Shown: positions 19,527 to 45,548, counted from the stretch's first letter. The stretch: 64,000 bases of DNA from an uncultured Phycisphaerales bacterium (GCA_903845195.1 CAIMWO010000031.1:69207-133206), one strand, 5' to 3'. Numbers and translations are program-made. Notes: generated from the sequence alone by a model not told the origin.

Positions 19527-20876
19527 TTAGGGAGCTGGCAGAAGGATAACGCTCACCCGCGTGGAGGAAATGGGCACGGGCTCTTGAGGCATAAAATGCA
19601 ACGATTTGCCATCCGACAACGTCACACTGACGCGTAAGTCATGCGGCGCGATCTGTCCTGCTGCGAATCCTGATGGAAACGGTGTAACTTCGGAAAGCTG
19701 TGCGTCGTTGTTCGCGCCACACACCGGGATGCGGAATTCAGCGTTCCGAACCATTCCATTGAGCATCCAATGACAGGTCACAAACACGTCAAGTTGCCGC
19801 GTATTGATCGGTACGTTCATAATCTGGAGCGATGGTTTACTTGGACTTGGCGGCGGTGCAATAGTTTCCAGTGTTTCTTTCCGCTGAATTGTTGACGATA
19901 GGGCCATAGGCTGCACTCGCTGATAGGATGAGAATTGGCCGTCATTCCATTGAATAATTAGCAGATTATCTCGTCCTGGAATCTTGGTGTCGGCGAATTT
20001 AGGCGGCAAGCGCAGTGTATTACTGCTATGGGTCCCCTTGTCCACGTCGAATGTGAGTCGTTCGCGGCAGATTCGCGAGGGAACATCATGAGAATCGCGA
20101 AGAGTTAGGGTCGTCATCAGCTTCTCGGCTCCAGCCGGAACGTTGAAGTATTGAATCGATGGACCGACAACGATCATCGAAGCGTGTGTTTGGGTGATTA
20201 TTGGGACGGACTTTGGAGGATTGGCCGGGAAAGGGTTAGAGAGGCTTAGGGACAGCTCCTGCATCCTCTGGACCGGCGGTTGCCGTCCAACTTTCGTGGA
20301 ATCCGTGATGGCGCAAGGGGCTGACTTCGTGGGTACATCCGGGGCCTTAATAGGTGTTTGAACCGCGATCGTAAGAGGCTCGGAGGGGCTGTGAAGCATC
20401 GACGTTCGTGCATCCGCGTCCTTCGTGCAGATGAAACCTTCTGCCCCCTCCGGATCCGCGAGGATCGTATTTCGAATATCGTCCGCTCGTCCTGTGTCAT
20501 TAGTAGCCATGGATACGGGTCGTGAGTTGAATAGGGGCTCATCGGAACGAAGCGGAGGCGACATAGCTGGTGCAGAGTTGCTTGGGCGCGTCGTGGGCAT
20601 ACGCTGATTTAGGTCGGAGATGATGTTGTTGAGGATTGTGTCGCGCTTCCGGTCGGCATTTCGATGTTGCGTCCAGGCACGAACCACGGGATCCGTTGAG
20701 GGCGCAACGGGGGGAAGAGTCGATTCCGCCGAATTGACGGGGGCCGATGGCGCTGAGATTGGACTCGCAGCGCTGGATTTTGGGAAATTGGCCTCCCACA
20801 GGGTTCTGCCGTAGCGGTTCCAGCCGATGATCCCAAGTACCAGTATGCCAATGATCAATAGCAGTCGTTTAATCAT
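19527..20876 (-). CDS. Secreted/membrane-anchored hypothetical protein (449 aa). The N-terminal ~100 aa is duplicated at 35527..35913.
   Basis: Strong AGGAGG RBS. N-terminal signal/TM MIKRLLLIIGILVLGIIGW. Ser/Pro-rich linker. Confidence 0.55.
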   Translation of the reverse strand: MIKRLLLIIGILVLGIIGWNRYGRTLWEANFPKSSAASPISAPSAPVNSAESTLPPVAPSTDPVVRAWTQHRNADRKRDTILNNIISDLNQRMPTTRPSNSAPAMSPPLRSDEPLFNSRPVSMATNDTGRADDIRNTILADPEGAEGFICTKDADARTSMLHSPSEPLTIAVQTPIKAPDVPTKSAPCAITDSTKVGRQPPVQRMQELSLSLSNPFPANPPKSVPIITQTHASMIVVGPSIQYFNVPAGAEKLMTTLTLRDSHDVPSRICRERLTFDVDKGTHSSNTLRLPPKFADTKIPGRDNLLIIQWNDGQFSSYQRVQPMALSSTIQRKETLETIAPPPSPSKPSLQIMNVPINTRQLDVFVTCHWMLNGMVRNAEFRIPVCGANNDAQLSEVTPFPSGFAAGQIAPHDLRVSVTLSDGKSLHFMPQEPVPISSTRVSVILLPAP

Positions 20877-21090
20877 TTCTTCGCCTCCTGAGTCGGATCC
20901 ACTTCGAGATGCCAGTCTCCACCCGAGTTGACAAGTCTTGCATGCACTTGTTCGAACCTGCTGTTTTTGTAAGTGAGATCCGATACGTCGCGAGGAAATA
21001 TTCCTCGAAACGATCGTCTGTAATACCTGCGTGACAACTTCTGCTCCGAAAGACCTCCACCAAAGGTTGGATCGCGTTAACCGTGCTCAA
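20869..21090 (-). pseudogene. 73-aa ORF spanning a deletion junction. Its 3' ~85 nt are the tail of the gene homologous to 35910..36878, read in a different frame. Probably not a functional gene.
   Basis: DNA identity of 20869-20960 with 35910-35996, but the stop falls in another frame (ND* versus DPTQEAKK*). Confidence 0.25.
20955..21045. repeat. Dispersed copy of the ~85-bp element also found at ~37975-38060 (upstream region of the second locus copy).
   Basis: Near-identical string gtgagatccgatacgt.gcgaggaaa.attcctcgaa.cg.tcgtctgtaata.ctgcgtgacaac at both sites. Confidence 0.5.
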
Positions 21091-21408: not shown

Positions 21409-22389
21409 ATGAATACATTACGCAGTACCATCGTTGCATTCATCGTCGCGGTTGCCCTCACGTTTTTGGGGTGCGAAGAACATTCTGATAAACCACAGGC
21501 ACGCAAGACAGTTGGCGTCCTACTTCTTGCGTCTCATCCGGTCCTTCAAGAGCTACGCGACGGATTCCGGGAGCGTCTCGACGAAATCGCCAAGGCGAAG
21601 AATGTGCAGCTATCGTATGATGAGAAAAACGCCGAGGGAAACGCCGCCACCCTGAATCAACTAGCCGCCTACTTCTCGACTGGGAAACACGATCTCGTTT
21701 ACGCTGTAGGGTCTGATAGTGCACTGAAATTGAAGTCCAAGGAATCTCAGATTCCCGTCATCTTCGCTGGCACCCCTGACCCTATCCGCAATGGATTTGT
21801 GGATTCATTGGAGAAGCCTGGTTCCAATCTAACAGGGGTGCGTTTCTTGGCGCCGGCAACTGTGCTTCTTGATGTCTTAGCAAAACGTCATCCAGGCATC
21901 CACAGAATTGCCGTCCTCCGAAATCCTTCTGAAATCAATTCCCTGTCGGTGGCAGATCCATTCATTGCAGAAGCTCGCAAACGAGGCATTATCATCGGCG
22001 ATTTTGGCGTCACAGAGATATCTCAACTTCCATCAATCCTCGGGAAAATCGGTTCCGAGAAATGGGAAGCCGTCTTCGTTCCCAATGACAATCTTATTTA
22101 CCAGAATCTCAAGCAGGCTGCGGCATCGCTCGCTTCATACGGTATCCCATTCTTCAGTGTCACCGACGCGTCTGTAAGAGCAGGAGCTGAATTTGCAGTG
22201 GGTGTCTCCTATCGCGAGATGGGACGCCAGGCTGCTTCGGTTGCTGCGAAGATATTGTTCGAGGGGAAGAAACCTGGCGAAGTTCCCGTGCTCGAGTTGC
22301 GCGAGGGTTGCCTCTATGTACCTGCTCAAAAATCGCAGGAATTTTCTTCTATGGCGCCTCGGGAATTTCCTGTTACGCCGGTAAAATAA
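21409..22389 (+). CDS. ABC transporter substrate-binding lipoprotein of the uncharacterised-transport family (COG2984 / ABC_sub_bind-like).
   Basis: 326 aa. Signal peptide plus lipobox LTFLGC. Periplasmic-binding fold pattern. First gene after an AT-rich ~300-bp promoter region. Confidence 0.65.
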   Translation: MNTLRSTIVAFIVAVALTFLGCEEHSDKPQARKTVGVLLLASHPVLQELRDGFRERLDEIAKAKNVQLSYDEKNAEGNAATLNQLAAYFSTGKHDLVYAVGSDSALKLKSKESQIPVIFAGTPDPIRNGFVDSLEKPGSNLTGVRFLAPATVLLDVLAKRHPGIHRIAVLRNPSEINSLSVADPFIAEARKRGIIIGDFGVTEISQLPSILGKIGSEKWEAVFVPNDNLIYQNLKQAAASLASYGIPFFSVTDASVRAGAEFAVGVSYREMGRQAASVAAKILFEGKKPGEVPVLELREGCLYVPAQKSQEFSSMAPREFPVTPVK

Positions 22390-22408
22390 ACGATAGGACT
22401 GTTCAATC

Positions 22409-23263
22409 GTGATTGAAGAAATCATCATGCAGACCGGGATTTATTGGTTCATGGCGCTTGGGCTGTGGATCAATCTCCGAGTCGTTCGATATCCCGACCT
22501 TGCCGTCGAGAACGTCCTGGTCTTGGCAGCCATGAGCACATGCGGCATTGCTGCCGCCGGCATAAACGGTGCAAGCGGTGTTGTCCTCACGGTAGTCCTG
22601 GGCGTGCCATCGGCGCTCCTCGTAGCAGGCTGCGCGTGGATAGCATGGAAAGTTCTGCGTGTTCATGCCATTATTGTCAGTCTTGCCTTAGGATACATCC
22701 TTTATTCGGTGGCGCTTGAAGCGTTTGGCGCTATGAAGGACGGGCAGGGTTTGCCTAAATTGCGTGCGAACGCACAAGGCTTGGCTATCGTCTATAGTTC
22801 CATTCTTGTTATCTGTGGGGTGCTGCAAATGATTAGAGGCTCCTCGGCAGGACGCCATTTCCTAGCCGCAGTTGGTAATCCGCCCCTCGCCCGCGCCTTG
22901 GGCATGAAACCAGCAGTCTGGCAGTGGTTGGGGCTGTCATTTGGGACATTCCTCATGATGGTCAGCGGACTTCTTCATGCCTGCTATTACACTTATGTTA
23001 ACATTGGGGATGCGGTGGGTTTTCTGCTTCTTGGAATCTTTTCAGCAGTCCTTGTAGCGAACGGCCTGTGTCCGCGTATCGTTGGCTTATGGAATGGGCT
23101 AGCGACGTTAATTGCCGTCGCGGCGTTTCAATCCGTCATCACCGTCGCGATTTACGCAGGCCTTCCAATAAATCTAAACAAAGGCTTGATGGGCTTGCTG
23201 CTGATAGGTGTGGTGGCGTTACTTCGATACAAGAAGGTCTCTCAACCCATCACTTTGAGTTAG
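22409..23263 (+). CDS. ABC transporter permease (COG4120-like, branched-chain amino acid permease-type fold).
   Basis: 284 aa with about eight hydrophobic helices. Directly follows the SBP gene. Confidence 0.6.
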   Translation: MIEEIIMQTGIYWFMALGLWINLRVVRYPDLAVENVLVLAAMSTCGIAAAGINGASGVVLTVVLGVPSALLVAGCAWIAWKVLRVHAIIVSLALGYILYSVALEAFGAMKDGQGLPKLRANAQGLAIVYSSILVICGVLQMIRGSSAGRHFLAAVGNPPLARALGMKPAVWQWLGLSFGTFLMMVSGLLHACYYTYVNIGDAVGFLLLGIFSAVLVANGLCPRIVGLWNGLATLIAVAAFQSVITVAIYAGLPINLNKGLMGLLLIGVVALLRYKKVSQPITLS

Positions 23264-23266
23264 CCC

Positions 23267-23896
23267 ATGATTACTCTTTCGCAGCTAACCTTCTCCTACA
23301 CGGAGGCCTTCGACGGATTTCGACTTGGCCCAGTTGACATGGCGATGCAACCAGGCAAGACCTACGGATGGAGGGGAAACAATGGCAGCGGCAAGTCCAC
23401 ACTTGCATCCATTCTTGCTGGTCAGCGGTCTGCAGCGACAGGTGGAATTGATGGACTCCCACCTCGGGTCCTCTATTTTCAGCAAAACATTGCGGCAAAC
23501 ATTTTTCCGGATCTCACGGTGGGGGAGCATCTTCGTCTCTGCAAAACTGCCGAGAGACGAGCAGATATCTTGCACGTGTTTCCGTCCCTCTCGCAATTCG
23601 CACGCAAGTATCCTGATGCGCTATCGGGTGGTCAACTCCAGCGCCTGGCATTCTCCCTCGCATTGATTCGCGACTTCGACCTTTACATATTTGATGAAGT
23701 AACCAACCACCTCGATCAGCAAACAGCGAAACTTGTTGGCGAAACGATGCAGTCCCTCCTCAGACGAAAACCGGACTGCACCGTGGTCTTCATAAGTCAT
23801 GATCATGACTTTCTTCGCCGCTACGCAGACGTTATCTTTACCTTCGACGAAGGAAAAGTGATTGAGGAATCCCAGTATGACCATTCGTTCACCTAA
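23267..23896 (+). CDS. ABC transporter ATP-binding protein (COG1101-like).
   Basis: Walker A GNNGSGKST. ABC signature LSGGQLQR. Walker B LYIFDEVT. H-loop ISHD. Confidence 0.8.
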   Translation: MITLSQLTFSYTEAFDGFRLGPVDMAMQPGKTYGWRGNNGSGKSTLASILAGQRSAATGGIDGLPPRVLYFQQNIAANIFPDLTVGEHLRLCKTAERRADILHVFPSLSQFARKYPDALSGGQLQRLAFSLALIRDFDLYIFDEVTNHLDQQTAKLVGETMQSLLRRKPDCTVVFISHDHDFLRRYADVIFTFDEGKVIEESQYDHSFT

Positions 23897-24620
23897 CGAT
23901 TGCAATAGAACTGCTATTGTGGTCGGCGGGACTTCAGGGTTTGGGGCTGCGATTACCGAGGAATTGCGTCAGCGTCGTTTCGCTGTGATCACGGTTGGTC
24001 GAAGTGCCGATTCGCCGCGGGGCGTGCGGCTTCATTTCTCATGTGATGTGGGCGATCTCCAGGCCTGGGATATGACCGTCGGCAAGATTCTTGAGGCAAC
24101 AATTTCTGCCAAAGTGGATGTCCTGATTTATACCGTAGGCTACGCTCGAGTATTTCCATTCGGTCACACTCCGTCGGAAGAATGGCACCGGCACCTACGG
24201 TTAAATTTGACCTATGTAGCAGAGAGTTTTCCGTACCTGGAGACGGTTCTTTCTGAGAATGCAAGCATAGCTACGACGGGGAGCCAATGGTCTTTCCGAC
24301 ACGGGTGGCCTGACCTAATTCCTTACATAACGGCTAAGCATGCATTGGCAACCCTCACCGAAGAGTACGCTGCGACTTTTCCTCAGCGGCGATTTAGGCA
24401 CTACTGCGTGCCTACTATGGCAACCCCTGGTTACGATGCGGTGCGCCAGTCTGTAATCGAGAACAAGGGAACACTGCATACCCTCTCCGACAAATCTCGT
24501 CCTGCTGATATTGGATTAATTAGTCGCGTATTCGTAACCGATCTGCTAGATTCTACCGTTACTCATCCCGTGACGCGTGAAATCAGCGCTGCCGGTAATC
24601 TGAAACCTGTTGGTGCATGA
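23877..24620 (+). CDS. Short-chain dehydrogenase/reductase (SDR) family oxidoreductase.
   Basis: ORF track 23862..24620. TAIVVGGTSGFGAAI (TGxxxGxG cofactor motif). YITAKHAL (YxxxK catalytic motif). Confidence 0.65.
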   Translation: MTIRSPNDCNRTAIVVGGTSGFGAAITEELRQRRFAVITVGRSADSPRGVRLHFSCDVGDLQAWDMTVGKILEATISAKVDVLIYTVGYARVFPFGHTPSEEWHRHLRLNLTYVAESFPYLETVLSENASIATTGSQWSFRHGWPDLIPYITAKHALATLTEEYAATFPQRRFRHYCVPTMATPGYDAVRQSVIENKGTLHTLSDKSRPADIGLISRVFVTDLLDSTVTHPVTREISAAGNLKPVGA

Positions 24621-25657
24621 TGAAAGATAGCGTAAAGGAAGTCGCCGAATACTTTGGGAAGCGCGCTGCACGATACCAGCTTTCGCAAGAAACATGCCCT
24701 ATGGCGCGAAGCCTGGATTTAATTCCTTACGTATACGTTATTGATGGCGTGATACGCCAATTCTCTCGAAGTCCAGGAGACTTACGGATTTTCGATGCCT
24801 TTGGAGGCTCCGGCTTTTTGTCGAGGTCATTTGCACACACTGAAATTCGTTTCACAATTGCTGATTGCACAAACGCCTATAAGCAAGACGGCAGCAACAA
24901 ACATGAGTGGCTGATATGTCCCGACTATTTCCGCGCCATATCCGCAGAACGAGCTGGAGAATATGATCTTGTGTTTGCGCATGGTGGACTTCATCACGTC
25001 TATGTTAAAGACAATGCTGGACTGGAAGATGAAACATCTGTCGGCCTTCAACACCAGTGTGTCGCTAACCTCTCGCGGCTACTCCGCAAGGGAGGTTTCC
25101 TGGTGTTAGCGGACATACCAGACCGGCCGTCCCGAGTGGACGCACATGGAAGTGACATTTCGCTTATCGATACCAGCATGGCAATTGACTTATTTGGCAA
25201 CGAACGACTAGCGTTCCTTCGGTCTGCAGCCACCGATTTCTCACTGTCTCCGTCGTTGAATAACACGTGCCACACTGTTGAGTCCATTTTCCGTGACTCC
25301 ACCCACCCCGGCTCTCTGCGGCGTTTCTTTGACGAGGAAGTTGCGCGCAAGACTCCCAACGGCCACGAAGCCTGTTTCCTTGATTTTGAAAGGATCATAG
25401 CAAGGGCTGCCAAACATGATCTGTGTTTAATGGCCCTCATACCTTACCCGGGAGCATGGGTATTTGAGACTGCGAACCAGGCCGTGTGGTTCTTTCGCGA
25501 AATGTTTGGCTTTGGACAATCGATGCCCCCTTTCCAGGAAGATTCGCAAGATTACGTCGTGAAGTCCGCCATTTCCGACACACTAGGGATGAGGAGTGTG
25601 GGCGATCATCTCGCGGTTAACTGGGGCGTGAGCTACGCAATCTTCAGGAGGGATTAA
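24617..25657 (+). CDS. Class I SAM-dependent methyltransferase.
   Basis: Motif I IFDAFGGSGFLS. Motif LRKGGFLVLADI. 4-nt overlap with the upstream gene. Confidence 0.55.
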   Translation: MMKDSVKEVAEYFGKRAARYQLSQETCPMARSLDLIPYVYVIDGVIRQFSRSPGDLRIFDAFGGSGFLSRSFAHTEIRFTIADCTNAYKQDGSNKHEWLICPDYFRAISAERAGEYDLVFAHGGLHHVYVKDNAGLEDETSVGLQHQCVANLSRLLRKGGFLVLADIPDRPSRVDAHGSDISLIDTSMAIDLFGNERLAFLRSAATDFSLSPSLNNTCHTVESIFRDSTHPGSLRRFFDEEVARKTPNGHEACFLDFERIIARAAKHDLCLMALIPYPGAWVFETANQAVWFFREMFGFGQSMPPFQEDSQDYVVKSAISDTLGMRSVGDHLAVNWGVSYAIFRRD

Positions 25658-25658
25658 C

Positions 25659-27923
25659 ATGGCGCAAGACATGCAGATCCTCCTGCAGAACTATCAGGGT
25701 ACGTTCATCCTAGACATGCTGAATGAGTTCCGCAAAGATGTTATTCGATGCATGTTTCGGGACATGGTTATTGCCATTGATTCGATCCATACCTCGCCAC
25801 CTCTCGAGAACCATTCGAGGGAACTGTCTGCTTTTCTGCGTAATTCCGATTGCCTAGCTTGGGCGAACTCGTTTTCCGAATGGTTTGGCGCCGATTGCCC
25901 GGCTCATGTGAAATCGCTATACGTCAATCTTCAACTCGCGGCAAGAGAATTTATAGTGAAATTCAATAGTAAACCGAAGACCGAAATATGGGCATACTTA
26001 TACTCGCCACAGTTCGCCACAAAATTGCGTATAAGTGCTGGGGATAAGCAAGGTTACAGAGGTGATTCCTTAGCCGGTCTTTTCAACGTCGTGGCTCTTT
26101 CGATCGACAAGAAGAACGTTAAGCTCATCCAGCCGCATGACATTGAGTTAACTGGCGGATTTCACACTTTACAATGTTGCTTCCCTATTTTGAACGCGAC
26201 GGCCCGGAGCCAACTCGCTAAAGATTTCGAGGAAGAACAAGAGTTTATATCACTCCCGCTCGAAGAAGATTTTTCTATTAAGCCTGCGATTTTTCGAGGA
26301 CATACAGCCGTCTGCTACGACACGGGCTATTACCAACATCACGTAGGAAGTTTGAGTCTTCTCCCAAAGGCACGACGGGTATACAACACTTGCTTTCTGC
26401 AAATCAGACCTCAGGCGGATCTGCAAAAGGCCAACGGTCCGGTTGGGTTCATTCAATTACAGTGCTGCTTGCCAGGACTAATGAACTTTCTTGTCCCGAA
26501 GTCGACAAGCAAGGATACAGATGTTCTGGTGTTGGGCATCGATAAACAGCTCGTTGCCACGAAAGGATGCGAAGATAACTTCAAAGACGTGGTCCTTGCC
26601 GAATTTGCTAACGATTGGTGGGAGAGCGACAAAGAACGGAGAAGTTTATGTACCTTCTGGAGGCTGCGAGAACTTACGCATGGCTGGCCGCGTAGGCTTT
26701 ACAACATTCTGGACTTAGGCAAGAGGCAGGCGGCCATACTGGAGAAAGAGTTGGTTCGGCGGGAGCAGCACAAATACCGCCAGCAACTTCAGTTGTTGGA
26801 TCAACCCATTGACGACTTACTGTCGGCCGTCGGCCTCCTGCAAGAGTCGTCCAGCCAGGTGTACGCGATAGTGAGGGAGCCGTCTGACGCAATTTTCGGA
26901 ATACATCACCAAGTGGCACCACTTTTCGATGAGAACAGCGGGAAACTAGTGGTCGCATCGGACTTCTCTGCGCGGATCCAACACGATCCGATGGAATATG
27001 ACGAGAAGGAGGAAGTTGATATTAAATCTTTGCGCTCTGTAGTAGCGATGCTTCTCCTTAAGTGGACTGGGTATCACAAGAAAACAACGACGTTAACATA
27101 TCTGCAGTTTATGACAAAGGCGTCACAATGGCTCGATAAATGCGAGCGTGATGGCAAGGCCTACCATTGGCTTCTGTCGCAAATCCGGGGTGTGTTACTA
27201 CGCCCAGCACCTAACGCTACCACGCCACCCCAAGTGGACCGAATGAGCGATCTGCTGGGAACAGGGTACCCATTCGCCGCGCTTCAGCAGGGTGCTTGTG
27301 CCGCCAAGTCACTGTTGTTTACCCCGTTCAAACTTGGTGCGAGTGAATTGGGGGTGCTTCCAGTAGCCATTGCCGCAAAACTCGATCACAAGAAGACGTT
27401 TGATATCGATCGCGGAGAAGTGATAAAGGCAACAATTTCGGACGTCGCGGCGGTCGAGGAACACCTCACGTTGACGCGCGACATTTCCCCCGCATTACCA
27501 AAGGACATCATCCAATTTATACACGGCGTTGTTGGGGAAGCGTTCAACCGCCGCCAGTCTCTCAATGTTGACGCTTTGCAGATTAAAAGGTGGTACTACG
27601 AGGACAGGGACATCAATTGGCAGCATATTCGAATCACCTTTTCTGATTCGTATTTGAAAGGGGCATTGAAGAAGTTGCGTGGCGAAGTGGATAGCCTGCT
27701 AAGAGCTGACCGCGATTGGAGAATAGAGTTTGGCGCTTCCGGCAATTTCAGTGCACCTTTTAAGACGTTGGCAAATCGGCTGCTCGGCGTTGGATCGGAA
27801 TGGTTCGTGTCTCCCACGCTTGAAGAAAGCGATGTCTTTAGGCTTATGAACGCAACGAGCCACAATACTTTCGCCGTTTCATCCCATGACAGGTGCATTT
27901 GCCTTGAATGGCAAAAAAAGTGA
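25659..27923 (+). CDS. Large hypothetical protein (754 aa), no recognisable domain.
   Basis: Begins 2 nt after the methyltransferase stop. Balanced composition. Confidence 0.55.
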   Translation: MAQDMQILLQNYQGTFILDMLNEFRKDVIRCMFRDMVIAIDSIHTSPPLENHSRELSAFLRNSDCLAWANSFSEWFGADCPAHVKSLYVNLQLAAREFIVKFNSKPKTEIWAYLYSPQFATKLRISAGDKQGYRGDSLAGLFNVVALSIDKKNVKLIQPHDIELTGGFHTLQCCFPILNATARSQLAKDFEEEQEFISLPLEEDFSIKPAIFRGHTAVCYDTGYYQHHVGSLSLLPKARRVYNTCFLQIRPQADLQKANGPVGFIQLQCCLPGLMNFLVPKSTSKDTDVLVLGIDKQLVATKGCEDNFKDVVLAEFANDWWESDKERRSLCTFWRLRELTHGWPRRLYNILDLGKRQAAILEKELVRREQHKYRQQLQLLDQPIDDLLSAVGLLQESSSQVYAIVREPSDAIFGIHHQVAPLFDENSGKLVVASDFSARIQHDPMEYDEKEEVDIKSLRSVVAMLLLKWTGYHKKTTTLTYLQFMTKASQWLDKCERDGKAYHWLLSQIRGVLLRPAPNATTPPQVDRMSDLLGTGYPFAALQQGACAAKSLLFTPFKLGASELGVLPVAIAAKLDHKKTFDIDRGEVIKATISDVAAVEEHLTLTRDISPALPKDIIQFIHGVVGEAFNRRQSLNVDALQIKRWYYEDRDINWQHIRITFSDSYLKGALKKLRGEVDSLLRADRDWRIEFGASGNFSAPFKTLANRLLGVGSEWFVSPTLEESDVFRLMNATSHNTFAVSSHDRCICLEWQKK

Positions 27924-27930
27924 GGACGTA

Positions 27931-28689
27931 ATGAAGGTTGTCATACACGACCACAAATCCCGCGACGATTTCTCTTGGGCCAAAATAATCGCGAAACTCG
28001 CCACGAAGACGGGTGTGAGGATTGCGGAATTCGTCACGGATAGGCCGAGCATTGATATGGTGCGTCCGGAGTGTGGAGGGGGTGACACCATCATTTTCTT
28101 ACATTCGGAGCAGTGGAGACAATGGAATATTGCTCAGGAGAATATCGTTCAGCCTCTTGCAGGCATTCTTGTACATGTCGGAACAAATGGTTTTTCAGGG
28201 CAGCATTCACCTTTCCAAAACCGTCGGTATGCAAGTAGGTTTACGGCGAAACAATTCGCGGAAAATGGCAGGGGGGAAGCGTTCTTTGCTTCTGTTGCGA
28301 ATGGGCATCCAGATTGGGAGTTCCTCAATCCGGCTGCGACGGAGGAACTCCGTGCCCTCAAGATCCTGTGCGAAGCGTGGAAGTTTGTTTTTGTTGCAGA
28401 GAAGAAGAAGGTTGCCGGCATTTCCGTTCACGCCCCGGAAACCCCGGCGGCCTGGTTCAAACCTTTCGACTGGATGTTCCCGGCCCCGGTTAACCTCAAC
28501 AGCGAGGAGGAAAAGCGTCGTATCCATAAAGAACTACCAGCTTTGGTCGCCCTGATGGGAGATGCCGAGGGAGACGCGATGAATCTGCTGACGGCGGTTA
28601 TAACGGGAGACGACCTCAGGATACCGGTCGAGACATTCCTGGATAGGTTCCCTGGCTCCAAACCAGCAGCAACGAAGGCGGGCACATGA
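27931..28689 (+). CDS. Hypothetical protein (~252 aa).
   Basis: ORF track 27886..28689. ATG at 27931 has an AGGA RBS and lies 8 nt after the upstream stop. N-term MKVVIHDHKS...IIFLHSEQW suggests an alpha/beta fold. Confidence 0.45.
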   Translation: MKVVIHDHKSRDDFSWAKIIAKLATKTGVRIAEFVTDRPSIDMVRPECGGGDTIIFLHSEQWRQWNIAQENIVQPLAGILVHVGTNGFSGQHSPFQNRRYASRFTAKQFAENGRGEAFFASVANGHPDWEFLNPAATEELRALKILCEAWKFVFVAEKKKVAGISVHAPETPAAWFKPFDWMFPAPVNLNSEEEKRRIHKELPALVALMGDAEGDAMNLLTAVITGDDLRIPVETFLDRFPGSKPAATKAGT

Positions 28690-30230
28690 CAACCACGCCC
28701 CCCATGAATCCTGTTTCGCGGGCTCTTTCCTTTGTCCTGAAAGGGAATCCCAGTCTCCTCGTCCTCGATTACGCGGACAAGGGCACATTCTCGGATCTCT
28801 GGCTAAAGGGATTGGAGTCATACACTCCAGAAATTGCTGGACACCAGGTGCCTTGGAATGATGAGCACGAGGTTGTGCTAATTGTTGGTGGACCGCCTCC
28901 CGCCGAGGCATTCAAGGAAATGCCGGAGTGCCTCAACGGTATCAATTTTCGCGATCATTTAACTGCGGCGTCATGGGCGGCGGCCTGGCGGCTCAGGTTT
29001 CCAGGCGCCAAGGCGCGTGTAGTTGTGCTCGCATCGAGTTCATATGGAACGGTGGGTTCGATCGCCGAGGCTCTGGCCACCCTGTTTAGCGCTCATGATG
29101 CGACCGGTTTGCCGCTCGTGCCTGGGATTAGCTTCTTGGGGTCGCCCTCGCTGGAAATCCTGTGCGAGAGCCTGAATGCTGATGACGGTGAAGTCATGGA
29201 ACCAACACCAACTGTCTTGGCGATGCTGCGCACCACTCTCTGGTACGGACTGACTTCTGATCGCGGTGACCACCATGCCGTGAGCAACGTCCTAGGTGCA
29301 CTCTTGCTGAGCTCTCAAGTAGGAAGGGGAGAGGCTCACGGAGGTCGAGCTTGGGCTGAAGATTATCTTCTCGCCCTGGCGAAGGCATGTGGCGTATTCG
29401 CCAACAGCGATCAAGCAGAAGTCAAGAATCGCCAGGGATCCAAGTGTTGGATAAATCCGCAAATACAGAGCGTCGTTAGCGCGGCAGTCCTGATCGATGA
29501 CATGGCCGACTTATGGGGAGTTTTCCTTCGAAACGCACTTGGGTTTGCCAGTGGTGCGGATTTCACAGGACAAGACCGCACCTTCCGTGAAAGTTTCGTC
29601 AGCTCACCTGACGGGAAATTCTTCGATGAACTCCAAGGATTGCCTGCAAGGTTAAAGGCTTTTCTCGGCTCCGGTGATCCATTCATTGCCGCCAGTGACC
29701 TTATCTCCGGGCAGCATAAGGTCAAGAAAGACTTCGTTCTATTCCTAGATCTTCGCCTCTTTCCCAAACGCGGTCTTGGCAGAAGCGATCAACAGGCGAT
29801 GTTTTTTTCAGAACTCGCTGAATTCGGTCTTGCCCTGCTTAATCCTGATCGCAATCTGCCATGGCTCGATGAGCTCGGACAAGAGCTTCTGCGGAATGAA
29901 CTTGGGCAATATGACGTCACGGTCTCGCATCAACCCTCTAATGGTGCGGGCCTCGACCTGCCTCCAGAGGAAACACTATTGCCCCGCCTCCTATCGCTGC
30001 TGGACCCAACACTTCCTATCGTCATCTTCTCTTCCACGCATCACAGTGAATTGACAGACCCATTCCGCGATTATGGCAACATCATCACCACCTTTCGAAA
30101 ACCGGTCGTCACCGCCATGACTCGTGATTGGATAGCGACGCTTGAGGAACTCCACGCCGATTTCGTCTCGGCGCTGGAGAAGTCAGCCAAGGTGATGAGT
30201 GCAAGAAGCATACTGCAGAGTTTTTATTAA
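28686..30230 (+). CDS. Hypothetical protein (514 aa).
   Basis: ATGA-type 4-nt overlap with the upstream gene. No known motif recognised. Confidence 0.5.
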   Translation: MTTTPPMNPVSRALSFVLKGNPSLLVLDYADKGTFSDLWLKGLESYTPEIAGHQVPWNDEHEVVLIVGGPPPAEAFKEMPECLNGINFRDHLTAASWAAAWRLRFPGAKARVVVLASSSYGTVGSIAEALATLFSAHDATGLPLVPGISFLGSPSLEILCESLNADDGEVMEPTPTVLAMLRTTLWYGLTSDRGDHHAVSNVLGALLLSSQVGRGEAHGGRAWAEDYLLALAKACGVFANSDQAEVKNRQGSKCWINPQIQSVVSAAVLIDDMADLWGVFLRNALGFASGADFTGQDRTFRESFVSSPDGKFFDELQGLPARLKAFLGSGDPFIAASDLISGQHKVKKDFVLFLDLRLFPKRGLGRSDQQAMFFSELAEFGLALLNPDRNLPWLDELGQELLRNELGQYDVTVSHQPSNGAGLDLPPEETLLPRLLSLLDPTLPIVIFSSTHHSELTDPFRDYGNIITTFRKPVVTAMTRDWIATLEELHADFVSALEKSAKVMSARSILQSFY

Positions 30231-30252
30231 CAAGGTTATTTCGGGGTGCGGC

Positions 30253-31446
30253 ATGAAATTGTTGGAAGTGTTCTTGGATGAATCTGGGGATATTAATCGC
30301 GGCGGGCCGATGAACATCACCGGAATCGCGGTCCTAAGTCCAAGCGCCAAGGTTGCACAAGCTTTTCATGCTTCGCTCTACACTGTTCTCAAGCCCGAAG
30401 GCCTGACTTCGGGCCTTTGCGATCAATCAGTCGCCAACGGCTCAACATGGGAAACTGTTCGTGCTCCGCAGGGCTACATCCCCAAGCGGCCGAAATCCGG
30501 CGAATGGCTGCAATTCGAAGGGAAGATATCGCAAGTCGCTCAACGCGCTGACGTCCTAGCTGAACGGCTAGGGGTATGGATCAGCGCCTTTTCCTTGGAA
30601 TTTCGCGCCAGTAACCGGCGAGGGTGGAGCACAAACAACGCCACCGAAGATCTGTTGTTGGATCGCACTTACGGGGAGTGCCTTCAGGATGTACTGGAAG
30701 TCTTGCTTTACGAAACTCCTGGCATCCGAGCCAGTTTATCTGATACAGAGGGTTGTGCCCTGGGGATAGATCTTCCCTCACGTATGCTTGGCGCATCAGG
30801 GGCCGATGCGTCCAGCCAAAGAGCAACTATTCAGCAGATGTGGCGGAATTGGGGTATTGACGCCTGGACAGAGATGGCAGATGACGGCCAAATCCAGGTG
30901 ATGGCCAACACGCTTGGAGCATCCGACGGTGTTGACGTCCTAACCGCAGCGCTCAATCGTCGCAAGAATGCAGATATTGCTTTCATAGTGCAACGAGCGC
31001 GATGCTGCAGGCTTGTGACATGGTCGCAATGGCTGGAGGCTGGGAACCTCCCAGAGCAGTCACGAATATCAAAACAGTCTACCATGATTAATAGCACTCC
31101 CCGCCCGAAGCAGATTCATTATTTGGCTGACTATTTAGCGAATCGCTTATTTCAAGGCAGTATCCAGCCAAACAGCGCTCCCTTCGGAAAGTGGTTTGAC
31201 CGTGGATTCCTTCTCTCAAGCGCGGATGAGCATGCTGGCTCATGGATCGGAGCATCGAGGGCGTTTGCGAATGGCAATCGAGTCGAAGCGATACGAAATG
31301 CAGGTGTCATTTGTGCTGATCCTCAGCATAGAGAGACAAAAACATCTTCCTTTTTTAGACGGGCAGCGCGGGAATGGGCAAAGTCCCTTACAGGAAATGA
31401 CTTCCGGGAACTCTTTGGACTAGCCCCAGGGACGACGAATATCTAG
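30253..31446 (+). CDS. DUF3800-like protein (N-terminal LxxFLDESGD motif).
   Basis: ORF track 30199..31446. Internal ATG at 30253 gives MKLLEVFLDESGD..., which resembles the conserved DUF3800 N-terminus. Confidence 0.4.
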   Translation: MKLLEVFLDESGDINRGGPMNITGIAVLSPSAKVAQAFHASLYTVLKPEGLTSGLCDQSVANGSTWETVRAPQGYIPKRPKSGEWLQFEGKISQVAQRADVLAERLGVWISAFSLEFRASNRRGWSTNNATEDLLLDRTYGECLQDVLEVLLYETPGIRASLSDTEGCALGIDLPSRMLGASGADASSQRATIQQMWRNWGIDAWTEMADDGQIQVMANTLGASDGVDVLTAALNRRKNADIAFIVQRARCCRLVTWSQWLEAGNLPEQSRISKQSTMINSTPRPKQIHYLADYLANRLFQGSIQPNSAPFGKWFDRGFLLSSADEHAGSWIGASRAFANGNRVEAIRNAGVICADPQHRETKTSSFFRRAAREWAKSLTGNDFRELFGLAPGTTNI

Positions 31447-31454
31447 AGGCTCAA

Positions 31455-32228
31455 ATGTCTTCAACAGTCTTAAATGAATGGCAATATAATCCACCGGAAT
31501 CGGTGGTGGTTGGCTGCGGCTCTTATTCCGCGGCCCTTGCCAGTATTTTGGGGACAGTCCCCCTTCCATTCGACGAACTGCATGCCGGTCCGGAACCAGA
31601 TACTGACGGCAGCTATGAATGCCTTTTGGAAAACCTGAAACACGTGCTCTTGGTAGTCTCAAACGAAATGGCTGCCGCCGAGACGCTCCGATGTCATCAA
31701 TCCTTATGGCGCTGGGTCGAAAAATTATCCTCTGCTGGTTGCCAGCATGATCTGGCCTTTCTATTCGTTCTCCTGGAAAATACTTCCGAACAATACGAAC
31801 ACGCCCTCGCAATCGGCTTGAGCGTCCCCGCTATCCATCCACCAACCACCGGCCATGCCGTCTGGCGGCGGTCAGGGTCACTCCCGGAACTGCTCGACCT
31901 CGTGGCGGCCACCCAATCGATGGACTTACTCCAACTGACGGCCCGCCGGGCTGTCGACATCAAGCGCCTGGCCTTGGCACGGCTACAGTCCGCTGTTGGA
32001 CGGGATGATTTGAATGACCTCCAAGGCGCCGTGCAGGCCGTTTTTCAAACTTTCCGCGGCAACGAATATGAATTCGATCTATTCTGCCGGCCCCCGAGTC
32101 ACCGCAATGGTAATCTTCTTCGCCGATGGCTGACCGTCGCCGTGACCGGAACCGTCACGCAGGATTGGTGGACCACCGGGAAATCTCAGCTTACCTCCTG
32201 GCTAGATGAAAGGCTGCTATCACCATGA
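31455..32228 (+). CDS. Hypothetical protein (257 aa).
   Basis: 8-nt gap after the upstream gene, 4-nt overlap with the downstream gene. Confidence 0.45.
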   Translation: MSSTVLNEWQYNPPESVVVGCGSYSAALASILGTVPLPFDELHAGPEPDTDGSYECLLENLKHVLLVVSNEMAAAETLRCHQSLWRWVEKLSSAGCQHDLAFLFVLLENTSEQYEHALAIGLSVPAIHPPTTGHAVWRRSGSLPELLDLVAATQSMDLLQLTARRAVDIKRLALARLQSAVGRDDLNDLQGAVQAVFQTFRGNEYEFDLFCRPPSHRNGNLLRRWLTVAVTGTVTQDWWTTGKSQLTSWLDERLLSP

Positions 32229-33544
32229 GCTCTATTCGGATACTAATCGTTGAGGATGACTCGCAACTGCTACCCATTTTAGCGACTTCCTATCGCAAGA
32301 TCTTCGCGTCCCTTGGCTACGTGGTGACCATTGAGCAAACGAGTAATGTGGCGGACGCAAGACAACTGGCGAAGGCCGCTCATGGTAAACCTTACGATTT
32401 TGTTTCACTCGACGTAAATCTTGGGGACGGCACGCTGACTGGTCTGAACGTCTTGGAAACGTTCAATCGATTTCGATCCGCCTGGATGGTGGCCTTGCTC
32501 ACCGGCGTCGAATCGGACGCGAAGCTGGATGCGACCTTAGGGAGGTCCGAAGCCGAGGATCTTCGCAAAAAGCTTCGCCGGCATGCATACGCGAACTTTC
32601 CAGCGGAACGGCTCATGGTGGTCGAAAAGCCATCCCCGAATGCCGACGACGCGCAGACACTTCTTTCTAATCGGCTAATCCAAATCGCTTTAGTTTACGA
32701 CGAGGTTGCACGCCTTCGCTACGTGTTCCGCCCCATAGAGGTCGCCGGACTCAAGCGCGTCCGGGCGCCCAAGGGAAAGAAGGTGAAGCGCTCGTTCATC
32801 AATACTACCTCGGTGCATTGGCAGATCAGGTTCAATTGTGGCGAAATCAGGACCCTACCAGATATGGCCGGCTTTCAAACTCTCCACCGCTTACTGGCGC
32901 TAGATCGCACCCAGTCGGTTACCCCCGAAGAAGCATTGATGAGTGAACCCAAGACCGAAAAGGCTGAGACCATAAAGACCGAGACGGTCACGCCGGATTG
33001 CGATGCCGATCCGTTGGCTACCTACTTTGAGGCCAAGGGAATCACCTGGAAGGGGCTCCCCCGAGAGGAGCAGGACACGCTGATTCGAGCGGCACTTTCC
33101 CTGCGGATAACGCGATACGTGGAGTTAAGAGAACTGCAGGATGATGAGGACGTCTCGCCTGCCGAAGGAAACGAATTGGATGCAATCAAGAAGGAACTCG
33201 GTCCGCTGGTGGGCGCGGCAGAGCGTGCCTATCAGAGCATTACTGCAATATCCAATCGCCAGAAGGCAGAGGAGGAAGAGGACAAGGACGAGAAATTTGG
33301 GGTGGCAGAAATGTCGGCGGAGGGTCTCCACCTTGAAGGCGGAAACTATGACCGAATCGGAAACGACCGGCGAGGATGGGATTCACCGGGAGGCCAAGCC
33401 TTCCGTGCCAGGATGAAACGCGTCAGGGATTGCCTGCGGGAGAATGGGTTTGACGATTTCGCCACACACATCGAAAAGTCCATCCAGTCCGCCAACGGCA
33501 AGTGGAGTTACAATCAGCCTAACGACATCGAGTGGACAACATGA
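32225..33544 (+). CDS. Response-regulator receiver (REC) domain protein with an uncharacterised ~300-aa C-terminal domain and no obvious HTH output.
   Basis: ILIVEDD...DFVSLDVNLGDG...ALLTG phospho-acceptor pattern. C-terminal ...KWSYNQPNDIEWTT is shared with the paralogue at 33868..35247. Confidence 0.6.
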   Translation: MSSIRILIVEDDSQLLPILATSYRKIFASLGYVVTIEQTSNVADARQLAKAAHGKPYDFVSLDVNLGDGTLTGLNVLETFNRFRSAWMVALLTGVESDAKLDATLGRSEAEDLRKKLRRHAYANFPAERLMVVEKPSPNADDAQTLLSNRLIQIALVYDEVARLRYVFRPIEVAGLKRVRAPKGKKVKRSFINTTSVHWQIRFNCGEIRTLPDMAGFQTLHRLLALDRTQSVTPEEALMSEPKTEKAETIKTETVTPDCDADPLATYFEAKGITWKGLPREEQDTLIRAALSLRITRYVELRELQDDEDVSPAEGNELDAIKKELGPLVGAAERAYQSITAISNRQKAEEEEDKDEKFGVAEMSAEGLHLEGGNYDRIGNDRRGWDSPGGQAFRARMKRVRDCLRENGFDDFATHIEKSIQSANGKWSYNQPNDIEWTT

Positions 33545-33867
33545 CTGGCGTGATAGCCAGATCAAGTGTTTGGGGCGCAATGCTCGGAAGACCTATCATC
33601 GGTATTGCCTGAAATCCGCTTCTTTTCGCTTTTCATTTTGGTCCGTCCATTTCACCACCCATGCGCCAATGTCCGTTTCGGCGCTGAAGTAATACCCTTG
33701 CTCCTGCAGATGTGATGGGACGATTCGTGCCACTGGGCTGGGCCTGCTGGTTGTTGAAATGGATCCCCCCGTAATGAAATGCAGGGAAACACCTCATTTG
33801 GCAATGCCGATAACAGAAGGGCATTTGACCAATGATGCTCTCAAACTCTTAATCTTAGGATCGCCGC

Positions 33868-35247
33868 TTATGTCGTCCACTCTATGTCGTCGGGTGGATT
33901 ATAGCTCCATTTGGCGCCGGGAGACTGAATAGAGTCTTCGATGTGTTTTGCGAACTCAGCGTATCCGTTTTCCCGCAGGTATTTGAAGACGCGCCCCTTT
34001 CTTTGACGGAAGGCCCAGCCAGCCTTTGACTCCTTTCCACGTCGGGCGGGACCATTAGTTACATCAATCCCGCCCTCCTGCCCGAGACCCTCGACAGCCG
34101 CTACCGTCGCCCCCCCCGGCCGGCGATTCTTGGCGTCCCGCCCGGGAGCTTCTTGTTCAGTATCGTTCTGCTTTCCTGCGGCGGCAGCCCTGCTGCGGTA
34201 TTTGTCCTCGGCAATGGCTGCGAGTGGACCAAAGCCCTTCACCATTGCCTCCAACTCATTTTCTTCGCTGGCCAAGAAGTAGGCCTTGGGGTTCTTATCA
34301 TCCTGCATTTCCCTTAGCTCCATGTATCGCATCATCTTCGGGGAAAGCTCCTCTTGAATCAGCGCGTCCAGAGTGTCAGGCGGAAGCCCATCACAGACGA
34401 TTCCCTTGGCTTTGAAATAGGCGGCCACTCCCCTGGCTACGGAGTTTGCGGCCACGGGCTCTTCATTCGCATCTGGACTGACGTTCTCAGGCTTTTCGTT
34501 TTTGGGTTCTTTCATCAATGCTTCCTCGGGCGTAACCACTTGGTTGCGATCTTGCGAGAGCAGGAGCCGGAGAGTCTGGAAGCCGACCATGTCGGGAAGG
34601 GTTCTCATGTCGCCACAATTAAACCTGATCTGCCAATGCACGGAGGTCGTCTCGATAATCCTGCCCTTCTCCTTTGAACCTTTGGGCGATGGAACGCGTT
34701 TGAGGCACGGAACCGTAATGGGTCGGAACACGTAACGAAGGCGCTCGATCTCTTCATACACATGCGCGATTTGTACCAGTCGATTAGTAAGGCGTGCTTG
34801 TGCCTTTTCTGCCTTGTCTGCATCCTTAAGCAAGGAATCCGGTTTTTCGACGACCATCAGTCGCTCGGCGGGGAAACTCGCGTACGCACGCTGCCGGAGC
34901 GTTTTACGAAGGTCCTCCGCTTCGATGCTCCCCACCGTCTTATCCAAGCTCTCGTCCGATTCCACGCCCGTGAGCAACGCGACCATCCAGGCAGATTGGA
35001 AACAATTCAGCGTCTCCAGGACGTGCAGCCCGTTCAGGGTGCGTTCCCCGAGATTTACGTCTAGGGAAACGAAATCATATGGTTTTCCGCGAGCAGTTTT
35101 CGCCAGTCGCCTCGCGTCCGCTACAGTACTCGCCTGCTCAAAAGTTGGCTTGTATCCAAGATCTGAAAATATCTTGCGATACGACGCTTTTAAAAACGCA
35201 AGCAGATTCAGATCGTCTTCGACAATCAAAATATGGACGGACTTCAT
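33868..35247 (-). CDS. Paralogous REC-domain protein (same architecture), convergent with 32225..33544.
   Basis: ORF track 33868..35352. ATG at 35247 (MKSVHILIVEDD...) has a GAAGG RBS. About 55% identity to the upstream paralogue across the full length. Confidence 0.6.
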   Translation of the reverse strand: MKSVHILIVEDDLNLLAFLKASYRKIFSDLGYKPTFEQASTVADARRLAKTARGKPYDFVSLDVNLGERTLNGLHVLETLNCFQSAWMVALLTGVESDESLDKTVGSIEAEDLRKTLRQRAYASFPAERLMVVEKPDSLLKDADKAEKAQARLTNRLVQIAHVYEEIERLRYVFRPITVPCLKRVPSPKGSKEKGRIIETTSVHWQIRFNCGDMRTLPDMVGFQTLRLLLSQDRNQVVTPEEALMKEPKNEKPENVSPDANEEPVAANSVARGVAAYFKAKGIVCDGLPPDTLDALIQEELSPKMMRYMELREMQDDKNPKAYFLASEENELEAMVKGFGPLAAIAEDKYRSRAAAAGKQNDTEQEAPGRDAKNRRPGGATVAAVEGLGQEGGIDVTNGPARRGKESKAGWAFRQRKGRVFKYLRENGYAEFAKHIEDSIQSPGAKWSYNPPDDIEWTT

Positions 35248-35526
35248 GGGAATACCTTCTTTCCATCTAACCAAGAGGTAAGTTGGGTTTATCTCGAGAC
35301 TCATTAATCCTGCGTGACAGGGTTGGTCACAGTGGCATTCAACCACTTGCAAAGAAGATGACCATCTTCATGGTGGTCGGGCTGTCGACAGTACAGATCA
35401 ACCCCTACAAGGCCGAAGGCGTGCACAATACCCCGCGCGACGGCCTGGATGACTTTTCTCCTAAGTGCTGTATCGTAAGGTGTTAAACGTCGATTGCTCT
35501 TTCGTTCCGCCGGATTGAGATGCAGT

Positions 35527-35913
35527 TTAATTCTTATGAGCGACAACTGGTGGCCTTGGATCAGGGCGAGGGTTTGATGGAAGCGTATTTGGAGGCGATG
35601 GAGCTGGTGCGGGGTTGCCGGGGCGCGTCGTGGGCATACGCTGATTTAGGTCGGAGATGATGTTGTTGAGGATAGTGTCCCGCTTCCTGTCGGCATTGCG
35701 ATGCTGCTCCCAGGCACGAATCACGGGATCCGTTGAGGGCGCAACGGGGGGAATCGTCGATTCCGCGGAATTGGCAGAGGCCCTAGGAGGCGAGATCCAA
35801 CGCGCGACGTTGGCTTTCGAGAGCCCGGCCTCCCACAGGGTTCTGCCGTAGCGGTTCCAGCCGATGATCCCAAGCGCCAGTATGCCAATGATCAATAGCA
35901 GTCGTTTAATCAT
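35527..35913 (-). pseudogene. Truncated duplicate (first ~100 aa) of the secreted protein 19527..20876. Diverges into unrelated sequence after ~300 nt.
   Basis: MIKRLLLIIGILALGIIGWNRYGRTLWEA... is nearly identical to the N-terminus of 19527..20876. DNA identity over ~35615-35913. Confidence 0.4.
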
Positions 35914-37976: not shown

Positions 37977-38042
37977 GGTAAACCTGCCTTTTTTGTTAGT
38001 GAGATCCGATACGTTGCGAGGAAACATTCCTCGAACCGTTCG

Positions 38043-38200
38043 TCTGTAATATCTGCGTGACAACTTTTGTCGCCGGAGGAAGATTCATCACGACATCCAT
38101 CCTGTAATCCCTGCGTGACAGTTACTGTCGTCGGAAGAATGTTCATCACGACATGCTTCCTGTAATCCCTGCGTGACAGTTACTGCTGCCGCGAGACCGC
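38043..38200. repeat. About 2.6 tandem copies of a ~58-bp unit (ctgtaat.c.tgcgtgaca...ttcatcacgacat.c.tc), immediately upstream of gene 36957..37976. Candidate regulatory array.
   Basis: Direct visual alignment of three consecutive units. A partial unit also follows the dispersed element at ~21028-21045. Confidence 0.5.
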
Positions 38201-40532: not shown

Positions 40533-40793
40533 ATGTGGAAAATCAGTGATTACCAGTCGGGTAAGAATAATTCGGTAGATGAAATCGCCGCGTCAAACCT
40601 GAGGGTACGGACAAAACATCCTTTGAAGAATTTGGGCGTGAGGACCGTCGACGAACTGACGGCACTCAGTGCGACCCAGATCCAGCAGGCACGAAATGCC
40701 GGAGTAAATACTCTGCCTGATATCCAAGCCTTTCTGGCACATAGGGGTAAGTGTCTCGCCTCTCATTCGCTTCCGAAAATACCAAGCGAATGA
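40533..40793 (+). CDS. Third alphaCTD-like small protein.
   Basis: AGGAGAAAAT-ATG RBS. LRVRTKHPLKNLGVRTVDELTALSATQI. Confidence 0.4.
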   Translation: MWKISDYQSGKNNSVDEIAASNLRVRTKHPLKNLGVRTVDELTALSATQIQQARNAGVNTLPDIQAFLAHRGKCLASHSLPKIPSE

Positions 40794-45251: not shown

Positions 45252-45548
45252 CTAAAGGCGAGGTTTGACACTATGAAACTTATCAATTGCCGCGGCGTCA
45301 TGTTCCAAGTCTTTCGCGGCTAAACGCCCGCTAACTAAAAATTTAGCCAACGATTGCCGTGATTTTGCAAACTGATCGCAGAATTGCTCATACCCATCAT
45401 CACGAAAGGTATTCCCCAACCAAGTGAGATCACGCCGAATAGTGGTGTCGAATTCTTCGACATTATCACAAAAACGGGCTAACTCACGTGCAAATCCTCG
45501 GATTTCTTCAGAATTGGCGTAAACCCGTTTGGATCCTGCATCGCTCAT
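45252..45548 (-). CDS. WXG100-family (ESAT-6/EsxA-like) protein (98 aa).
   Basis: AGGAGG RBS. Central W-x-G (TWLGN) between two helices. Size ~100 aa. ATGA overlap with the upstream ATPase stop. Confidence 0.5.
   Translation of the reverse strand: MSDAGSKRVYANSEEIRGFARELARFCDNVEEFDTTIRRDLTWLGNTFRDDGYEQFCDQFAKSRQSLAKFLVSGRLAAKDLEHDAAAIDKFHSVKPRL

Follow-up and report, generated by a model that had tools for sequence, protein, structure and literature searches.

Response regulators are classified by their output domain, and a new output class is a new route from a phosphorylation signal to a cellular action. Here, we analysed a stretch of 64,000 nucleotides from an uncultured Phycisphaerales bacterium (GCA_903845195.1 CAIMWO010000031.1:69207-133206; the whole stretch is hereafter the window) that carries two paralogous genes, A and B, each encoding a receiver followed by a C-terminal module; REC-X is our family label for proteins of this type. 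Three described groups are closest to them. Regulators of the OmpR/PhoB family resemble REC-X in having an N-terminal receiver with all phospho-acceptor residues, a C-terminal output and a comparable total size; REC-X, however, has no Trans_reg_C match, carries ~130 residues of acidic helices in the middle of its module and has no cognate kinase adjacent to it. In AfsR/SARP- and HilA-type proteins, as in REC-X, a switch is joined to an effector, and the REC-X module is homologous to the C-terminal ~180 residues of relatives of these proteins; however, the N-terminal DNA-binding domain of AfsR and HilA (SARP or OmpR-type) is missing from the module-bearing relatives, and the switch of REC-X is a receiver and not an NTPase. 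Finally, orphan regulators with non-canonical outputs share with REC-X an NtrX/ComE-type receiver fold and the absence of a paired kinase gene, whereas their outputs (AAA+/helix-turn-helix (HTH), LytTR or none) differ from that of REC-X.

We consider the best explanation of the pair to be that A and B are phospho-switched orphan regulators whose module has a probably nucleic-acid-binding, transcription-regulatory output, that they belong to a gene cluster marked by g10, the gene immediately before A, and that B is an inverted duplicate; we place the probability of this reading as a whole at roughly 0.5. The receiver would then serve as a phospho-switch, acting through Asp63, that governs the output of the C-terminal module; the module would bind nucleic acid, probably as a dimer, and regulate transcription; and REC-X would most likely switch the cluster, or genes acting with the cluster, on or off in response to a signal from an unlinked kinase.

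Both open reading frames (ORFs), their tail-to-tail layout and the gap between them (Table 1) are exactly as described in an earlier reading of this DNA that was made from the sequence alone (the sequence-only reading). The two proteins are paralogues that align end to end, as that reading had proposed, although their identity is 58% across the full length (BLASTP, E 4e-176) and not ~55%; their C-terminal tails (KWSYNQPNDIEWTT and KWSYNPPDDIEWTT) share the pattern KWSYN(Q/P)P(N/D)DIEWTT that it had pointed out. Public data hold an exact copy of A (P0001). A TTG at 35352 is a possible longer start for B, and homologues start at the position of B's ATG. In a simple scan, the spacer between the two genes contained weak terminator-like hairpins only.

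The receiver halves matched Pfam Response_reg (PF00072) weakly (31.1 bits for A and 27.1 bits for B; cut-off 30.2), and most homologues carry a precomputed PF00072 match. In an AlphaFold2 (AF2) model of A, the mean predicted local distance difference test score (pLDDT) was 84 and exceeded 90 over the receiver, whose strands and helices follow the canonical (beta-alpha)5 order. The best Foldseek matches of the receiver model were themselves receiver domains (E 1.5e-6 to 1e-3; template modelling (TM) score 0.6-0.78 on the target), including CtrA, NtrX, ComE and Rcp1/phytochrome-associated receivers. An alignment to full-length ComE had additional columns that hinted at a LytTR-like output; since these add no TM-score, the LytTR domain is unmatched and this candidate was rejected. 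The full active-site set of a receiver, consisting of the acidic pair E10/D11, the phospho-acceptor D63, T93 and K135, is kept in both A and B, and E10, D11, D63, T93 and K135-P136 are invariant in 43/43 aligned family members, these two included. The Asp of the SLDVNL motif, which the sequence-only reading had singled out as a residue to follow in homologues, is thus conserved.

No histidine kinase is adjacent to the pair, in line with the same reading: among the larger ORFs scanned in the window (the 11-gene run that ends with A and ~40 others of at least 128 amino acids (aa)), none has a histidine-kinase domain, and kinase families are absent from the Pfam annotations of called genes in five related loci. 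Because no kinase domain occurs in either set, we regard A and B as orphan response regulators; they are predicted to be phosphorylation-competent, with Asp63 as the putative site.

The C-terminal half (residues 163-439 of A) was modelled separately with a pLDDT of 82.7 and appears to comprise three parts: a basic beta-hairpin/helix unit, an acidic coiled-coil-like middle, and a basic helix-helix-hairpin tail with the pattern W.Y.PP...W. The first part, residues 163-242, is modelled as a long basic beta-hairpin, K/R-rich at its tip, plus a third strand and a pair of short helices; it carries the motif HWQIRFNCGEIRTLPD.AGF.TLH.LL and has a mean net charge of +4.7. The middle includes a 43-residue helix, has a net charge of about -11 and is flanked by two disordered linkers. 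The last part, residues 381-439, is the most conserved stretch of the family and runs from RRG..S through the basic helix FRARMKRV.DCLRENGF and a second helix to a beta-hairpin and the tail WSYN.P..IEWTT.

Searches of residues 163-439 gave zero matches in Pfam, NCBIfam and PADLOC (A, B and 28 C-terminal regions; E up to 1-5 for Pfam and NCBIfam) and zero matches among PDB sequences by either single-sequence or profile search. Catalytic output profiles (GGDEF, EAL, HD-GYP, CheB, PP2C and others) did not match the region in Pfam or NCBIfam, Trans_reg_C (PF00486) matched it neither by sequence nor by fold, and no PADLOC defence-system model matched A, B or the unannotated operon genes, g3 matching only as a generic ABC-ATPase. 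Structure prediction, which the sequence-only reading had recommended, likewise gave a model with no fold match in PDB or BFVD at E <0.05. The view that neither protein has a recognisable HTH or enzymatic output thus stands, and with the tools used the region aligned to no known output domain, HTH included.

That reading had also proposed a novel ~300-aa domain, which holds in that the region has no Pfam, NCBIfam or PDB counterpart, but not in that the region is unique: it shows profile homology to a widespread module of ~180 aa. An exhaustive profile search of 1.84 billion cluster representatives returned 42 matches, mostly of the REC+X architecture, and the C-terminal part also matched the end of P0149 (hidden Markov model (HMM) E 3.5e-5), a fusion of 1683 aa that contains a DnaG-type zinc finger and a reverse transcriptase, as well as several receiver-less proteins of 230-610 aa. 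It is residues 381-439 of A that the non-REC proteins (P0149-P0160) match. The common pattern is bipartite, 'G.VW.I.F.G....L.D..G...L..LL..P' and 'R.RV.K.L.....LA.HL...I..G..Y.PP...W' on either side of an acidic coiled-coil stretch, and residues 163-242 of A align to 'W.I.F.G....L.D..G..YLA.LL..P' of the wider module; a helical insert at ~residues 263-311 is specific to REC-X and has no counterpart in the wider-module alignment.

A tblastn search with the P0149 module found C-termini in Streptomyces, Nonomuraea, Embleya and Chondrinema (E 1e-14 to 6e-21), in proteins annotated 'AAA family ATPase', 'tetratricopeptide repeat protein' or 'hypothetical protein'. The module stands at the C-terminus of STAND-NTPase/tetratricopeptide repeat (TPR) proteins of Streptomyces and Bacteroidota, and the STAND-type pattern reads 'W.I.F ... 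ERAR..VT.AI ... TG..C.Y.P..W'. One 899-aa Streptomyces protein consists of AAA_22/nSTAND/NB-ARC and MalT-type TPR regions with the module at the end, and aligns to the AfsR model from residue 286 onward only, which means that it lacks the SARP DNA-binding domain; a 613-aa Chondrinema protein, also with the module at its end, aligns to HilA/EilA from residue 113 onward only and therefore lacks the OmpR-type DNA-binding domain. An HMM built from metagenomic non-REC modules covers the Streptomyces and Chondrinema ends fully (82 and 71 bits, respectively). When the REC-X C-terminal alignment was compared by hhalign with a 41-sequence module alignment, the match had a probability of 98.6% (E 8.4e-16) and extended over 187 columns and both conserved ends; against a 10-sequence subset in which the STAND-type form predominates, the probability was 94.9% (E 4.6e-8). 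Judged by these profile comparisons, the C-terminal region of REC-X is a divergent member of a widespread, un-modelled ~180-aa module and is homologous to the STAND-type form. Word-indexed homologue searches with the module alignments added hypothetical proteins only.

The sequence-only reading had suggested looking for the domain in other architectures, and it occurs in STAND-NTPase/TPR proteins, in a reverse-transcriptase fusion and in small stand-alone proteins. The stand-alone and reverse-transcriptase-fused forms are located in mobile-element or prophage regions. P0149 itself (L055:8001-13052; a CHC2 zinc finger of the DnaG type, a reverse transcriptase and the module) lies in a prophage-like island, adjoined by a serine recombinase, an RNase H-like gene, Abi_2 and an MmeI-type methyltransferase.

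We infer a nucleic-acid-binding output because the module stands where AfsR-/HilA-like proteins miss their winged-helix DNA-binding domain, because three different types of switch or sensor carry it (receivers, STAND NTPases with TPR, and a reverse-transcriptase fusion), because its hairpin end is basic and its middle acidic, and because its stand-alone versions occur in mobile-element or prophage regions. No domain database holds a model of it, and with one defined, many entries now labelled 'AAA family ATPase', 'TPR protein' or 'hypothetical' could be annotated together. In the literature searched, we found no description of the module or of the cluster, and a paper on STAND/ternary conflict systems mentions neither TCAD9, RNA polymerase nor the module.

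Verrucomicrobiota metagenome bins are almost the only source of full-length REC-X homologues (52-66% identical, ~430 aa), and a scan of one genome per species (185,579 species) found six REC-X loci, all in metagenome-assembled genomes; relatives were absent from the viral contigs and plasmids searched. Wherever upstream sequence is present, g10 lies directly 5' of REC-X (~50 loci, with at most 1-2 short-contig exceptions), and its homologues in related loci are 34-53% identical. REC-X and the translationally coupled g10 are fixed components of a cluster found almost only in Verrucomicrobiota. The g10 protein is unmatched in Pfam, NCBIfam and PDB. A candidate CX5R phosphatase motif ('FCRPPSHR') was rejected as its Arg is not conserved, and weak profile matches to G-alpha were rejected as non-significant matches to engineered chains. 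The N-terminus of g10 (31455-31500; NEWQYNPPESVVVG, EWQYNPPESV) resembles the REC-X tail (33497-33541 in A; WSYNPPEGVEW), and the W.Y.PPE pattern repeats among g10 homologues; judging from the motifs, this likeness could be due to chance or to a common docking motif.

The constancy of g10 bears on a different view of the module, in which it is a protein-protein or oligomerisation adaptor and phosphorylation controls the assembly of REC-X with g10, with the large cluster proteins or through module-module contacts. Such a role would suit a translationally coupled gene found beside REC-X in nearly all loci that retain upstream sequence, the long, acidic, coiled-coil-like helix within the module, and an HTH that is detected neither by sequence nor by fold; moreover, modules that end STAND NTPases are often adaptor domains (STAND conflict systems, PMC7159879), and the likeness between the g10 N-terminus and the REC-X tail can be added, although so short a motif could be chance. 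However, the AfsR-/HilA-like carriers miss exactly the DNA-binding domain, which a functional replacement fits better than an added adaptor, and it is not obvious which effector the small stand-alone module proteins would recruit. We therefore hold the adaptor to be possible but rather unlikely.

A is the last gene of a co-directional, tightly packed run (21409..33544), which bears out the claim that one copy terminates an 11-gene operon. The run encodes an ABC substrate-binding protein, permease and ATPase, a short-chain dehydrogenase, a possible methyltransferase, five unmatched proteins and A; its genes g6-g9 have no Pfam, NCBIfam, PADLOC or PDB matches. In relatives, the genes upstream of g10 encode a ~750-930-aa protein (or a ~840 + ~540 pair), a ~250-295-aa protein and a ~1020-1090-aa protein. 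In the window, g8 and g9 (28686-31446) lie in different frames and together match the single ~1020-aa protein of relatives (L004 6152-9217); since the same split is found on the independent assembly L002, it is probably a genuine frameshift or split rather than a sequencing error. Downstream of REC-X, relatives encode either a ~870-900-aa protein or two proteins, one of 147 aa and one with a TCAD9 domain, after which eight loci have a bacterial-type RNA polymerase whose beta and beta' are fused in one polypeptide (1792-2134 aa in the complete cases, far below the combined length of rpoB and rpoC) beside a 317-338-aa protein and a sigma54-type AAA+ protein, at most 10 kb 3' of REC-X. No description of this fused polymerase was found in the literature searched, and relatives of it were absent from the viral contigs searched.

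In a bolder extension, REC-X and g10 would be the regulatory core of an undescribed, almost exclusively Verrucomicrobiota cluster that includes several large proteins of no recognised fold and whose complete form has its own minimal fused polymerase and the sigma54-type AAA+ protein, and the module would be a new class of nucleic-acid-binding output that directs the polymerase and is reused by STAND NTPases and reverse transcriptases elsewhere; we regard this as speculative and, in its full form, unlikely. The module, once defined, would offer a regulatory entry into a Verrucomicrobiota cluster that encodes a second, fused RNA polymerase in many genomes. The pair in the window is a partly degraded instance, with the partner gene of B dead and the polymerase absent, and the main potential lies in the breadth of the module and in the cluster of the polymerase-bearing relatives, not in this locus.

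Several results weigh against the reading of A and B as regulators with a nucleic-acid-binding output. The receiver score of B is under the Pfam gathering cut-off, the inter-domain packing of the model is uncertain (predicted TM score 0.51-0.57), and Foldseek left the C-terminal model unmatched in PDB (best E 1.2) and BFVD (best E 0.056). Direct hhalign of REC-X against only two STAND-type (plasmid) sequences was not significant, so that the link between REC-X and the STAND-type form depends on intermediate sequences. To the eye, the elements of the module follow one another as in a winged helix with an insertion (strands, a helix, 'P.R....EL', a basic helix and a hairpin with an aromatic residue); with the middle of the module spliced out, however, hhalign against PhoB/ArlR gave a probability of 2.9% (PhoB sequence checked against 1QQI and 1GXP), and a PDB profile search with the spliced module found zero HTH proteins and only spurious armadillo-repeat matches. 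An OmpR/SARP winged helix split by a coiled-coil insert is accordingly unsupported, and a very remote kinship of the module to the winged helix may exist. A 19-nt motif (CTGTAATNNCTGCGTGACA) that could have been an operator occurs in four copies where 0.15 were expected (21018-21036, 38044-38062, 38102-38120 and 38160-38178), one of them in the intergenic region that separates the operon from the divergent gene and three in 58-nt tandem repeats 5' of the minus-strand genes leading to B, and it falls inside a direct repeat of 89 nt (20955-21043 / 37981-38069); this candidate was rejected, as the motif is absent from all other loci and no conserved operator was found. Finally, the window has neither the ~870-aa downstream gene nor the RNA polymerase, and its ~1020-aa gene is split; the cluster thus looks partly degraded here, and the regulators may have lost their original target.

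The same loss could be taken to mean that REC-X brings the fused beta-beta' polymerase to its promoters, as a dedicated activator or specificity factor, and that the copies in the window are leftovers of a cluster that lost it. The polymerase lies within 10 kb 3' of REC-X in the eight loci, and the window, with no polymerase, has the split ~1020-aa gene and a rearranged downstream side. We judge this quite improbable, however: L006, L013, L031, L035 and L041 have 8-10 kb of downstream sequence but no polymerase, relatives of the module occur in organisms and proteins without such a polymerase, and in the case of the window a polymerase could sit elsewhere in the genome.

We return to the reading of A and B as orphan regulators, the last element of which is that B is an inverted duplicate. 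At the DNA level, the two genes share three collinear inverted-repeat blocks (32107-33151 / 34291-35365, 71-74%), the first of which extends 118 nt into the 3' end of g10, and B arose by inverted duplication of a segment consisting of the g10 3' end and A. Neighbour joining of 125 family members placed A and B as sisters, with B on the longer branch (mean distance to other members 0.79, vs. 0.64 for A). Of the 78 positions invariant among the other 41 family members, A keeps 77 and B keeps 73; B has lost 15/86 near-invariant positions and has kept all receiver active-site residues. The sequence-only reading had also placed B next to a truncated duplicate locus, and such a locus is present in the form of a g10 remnant and a 128-aa ORF copy. 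The remnant, within the first inverted repeat (I1), has three in-frame stops in ~70 codons, at positions of W, W and K in g10. The first 108 residues of the 128-aa ORF copy the start of a 449-aa ORF that diverges from the operon, which indicates segmental duplication and rearrangement around B; direct DNA repeats join 20554-20853 to 35591-35890 (86%) and 20955-21043 to 37981-38069 (89 nt, 90%), the latter being an element upstream of B that, like the 128-aa ORF, was copied from the other end of the operon. B and the rearranged duplicates occupy the downstream side of A, where the window has none of the downstream genes of the relatives.

Second copies in other loci have a different history. 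Those on other contigs (P0116 with P0032, P0095 with P0044) belong to a separate older clade of ~15 members; in L006 (8449-11377), a second REC-X of ~434 aa from this clade stands in tandem with the first, and others occur in L035 and L047 (in both, second matches ~800 bp downstream) and at L013:6633-7472. Since second copies elsewhere belong to the older clade and are in tandem in L006, the convergent A/B pair is a local event and not a design of the family. On the tree and residue losses, then, B is a lineage-specific, faster-evolving duplicate of A that lost its partner gene. Before the second copy in L006 lies an intact 94-aa ORF equivalent to the last ~80 residues of g10, the same portion that survives as a pseudogene before B.

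These data raise the alternative that B, and possibly the whole locus in the window, is a decaying by-product of rearrangement with no separate function, the pair being a transient duplication accident. B is indeed a lineage-specific sister on a longer branch with 5/78 invariant positions lost in addition to the near-invariant ones, its g10 copy is a pseudogene amid duplicated and truncated sequence, and the convergent layout is unseen in other loci. Yet the 459-codon ORF of B is intact while the adjoining remnant gained its three stops, and B keeps the core motifs of the module together with the receiver active site; we hold this alternative to be very unlikely. Because B has stayed open and largely conserved while the g10 fragment decayed, B, if active, would be a second, more divergent regulator.

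Table 1. Coordinates of the A/B pair, its parts and neighbouring genes in the window, and of fused polymerase genes in related loci (L numbers).
Feature	Coordinates	Strand	Description	Basis
Gene A	32225..33544	+	439 aa, REC-X response regulator, 11th and last gene of the run	ORF call
Receiver of A, residues 1-162	32225..32710	+	Extended helix-4 region between strand 4 and strand 5	
Module part 1 of A, residues 163-242	32711..32950	+		AF2 secondary structure, charge, alignment to wider module
Acidic helical middle of A, residues 263-354	33011..33286	+	Helices 263-306 and 312-354; net charge about -8	AF2, charge
Module part 2 of A, residues 381-439	33365..33541	+		AF2, conservation
Spacer between A and B (convergent)	33545..33867		323 bp	
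Gene B	33868..35247	-	459 aa from ATG, paralogue of A	ORF call
Receiver of B	34744..35247	-		
C-terminal module of B	33871..34743	-		
g10	31455..32228	+	257 aa, upstream partner of REC-X; stop overlaps A start (ATGA)	
g6, g7, g8+g9	25659..31446	+	Unannotated cluster genes; 754 aa, 267 aa, 514+415 aa	Synteny in related loci
g10-copy 3' remnant (pseudogene)	35248..35459	-	Abuts B start codon; 42% to g10 residues 190-257	tblastn
128-aa ORF	35527..35913	-	First 108 residues 82% identical to start of 449-aa ORF 19527..20876	
Fused beta-beta', L004	16492-21293			
Fused beta-beta', L005	14014-19392			
Fused beta-beta', L007	17620-21296			
Fused beta-beta', L010	17726-21268			
Fused beta-beta', L015	15159-20603			
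Fused beta-beta', L020	13920-19277			
Fused beta-beta', L033	18631-21219			
Fused beta-beta', L042	14091-20066			

In the wider window, mobile-element genes flank the locus, namely those for a TraG/TrwB-type coupling protein (821 aa, 15271-17736), an FtsK/SpoIIIE-family protein (1141 aa, 45545-48970) and an rve-type integrase (50175-51338); of the remaining ORFs from 1 to 50 kb, most lack a family match. In L006, too, the REC-X pair is followed by a TraG-like gene, and the window may lie on an integrated conjugative element. An 86-aa product encoded at ~40533-40793 has a weak precomputed match to the RNA polymerase alpha C-terminal domain PF03118 (L001 18309-18569). At 51761-56983, a 1723-aa ORF (-) and a 1419-aa ORF (+) overlap nearly fully, neither with a Pfam match, in a segment of 62% G+C with a strong positive GC skew of 0.23-0.28.

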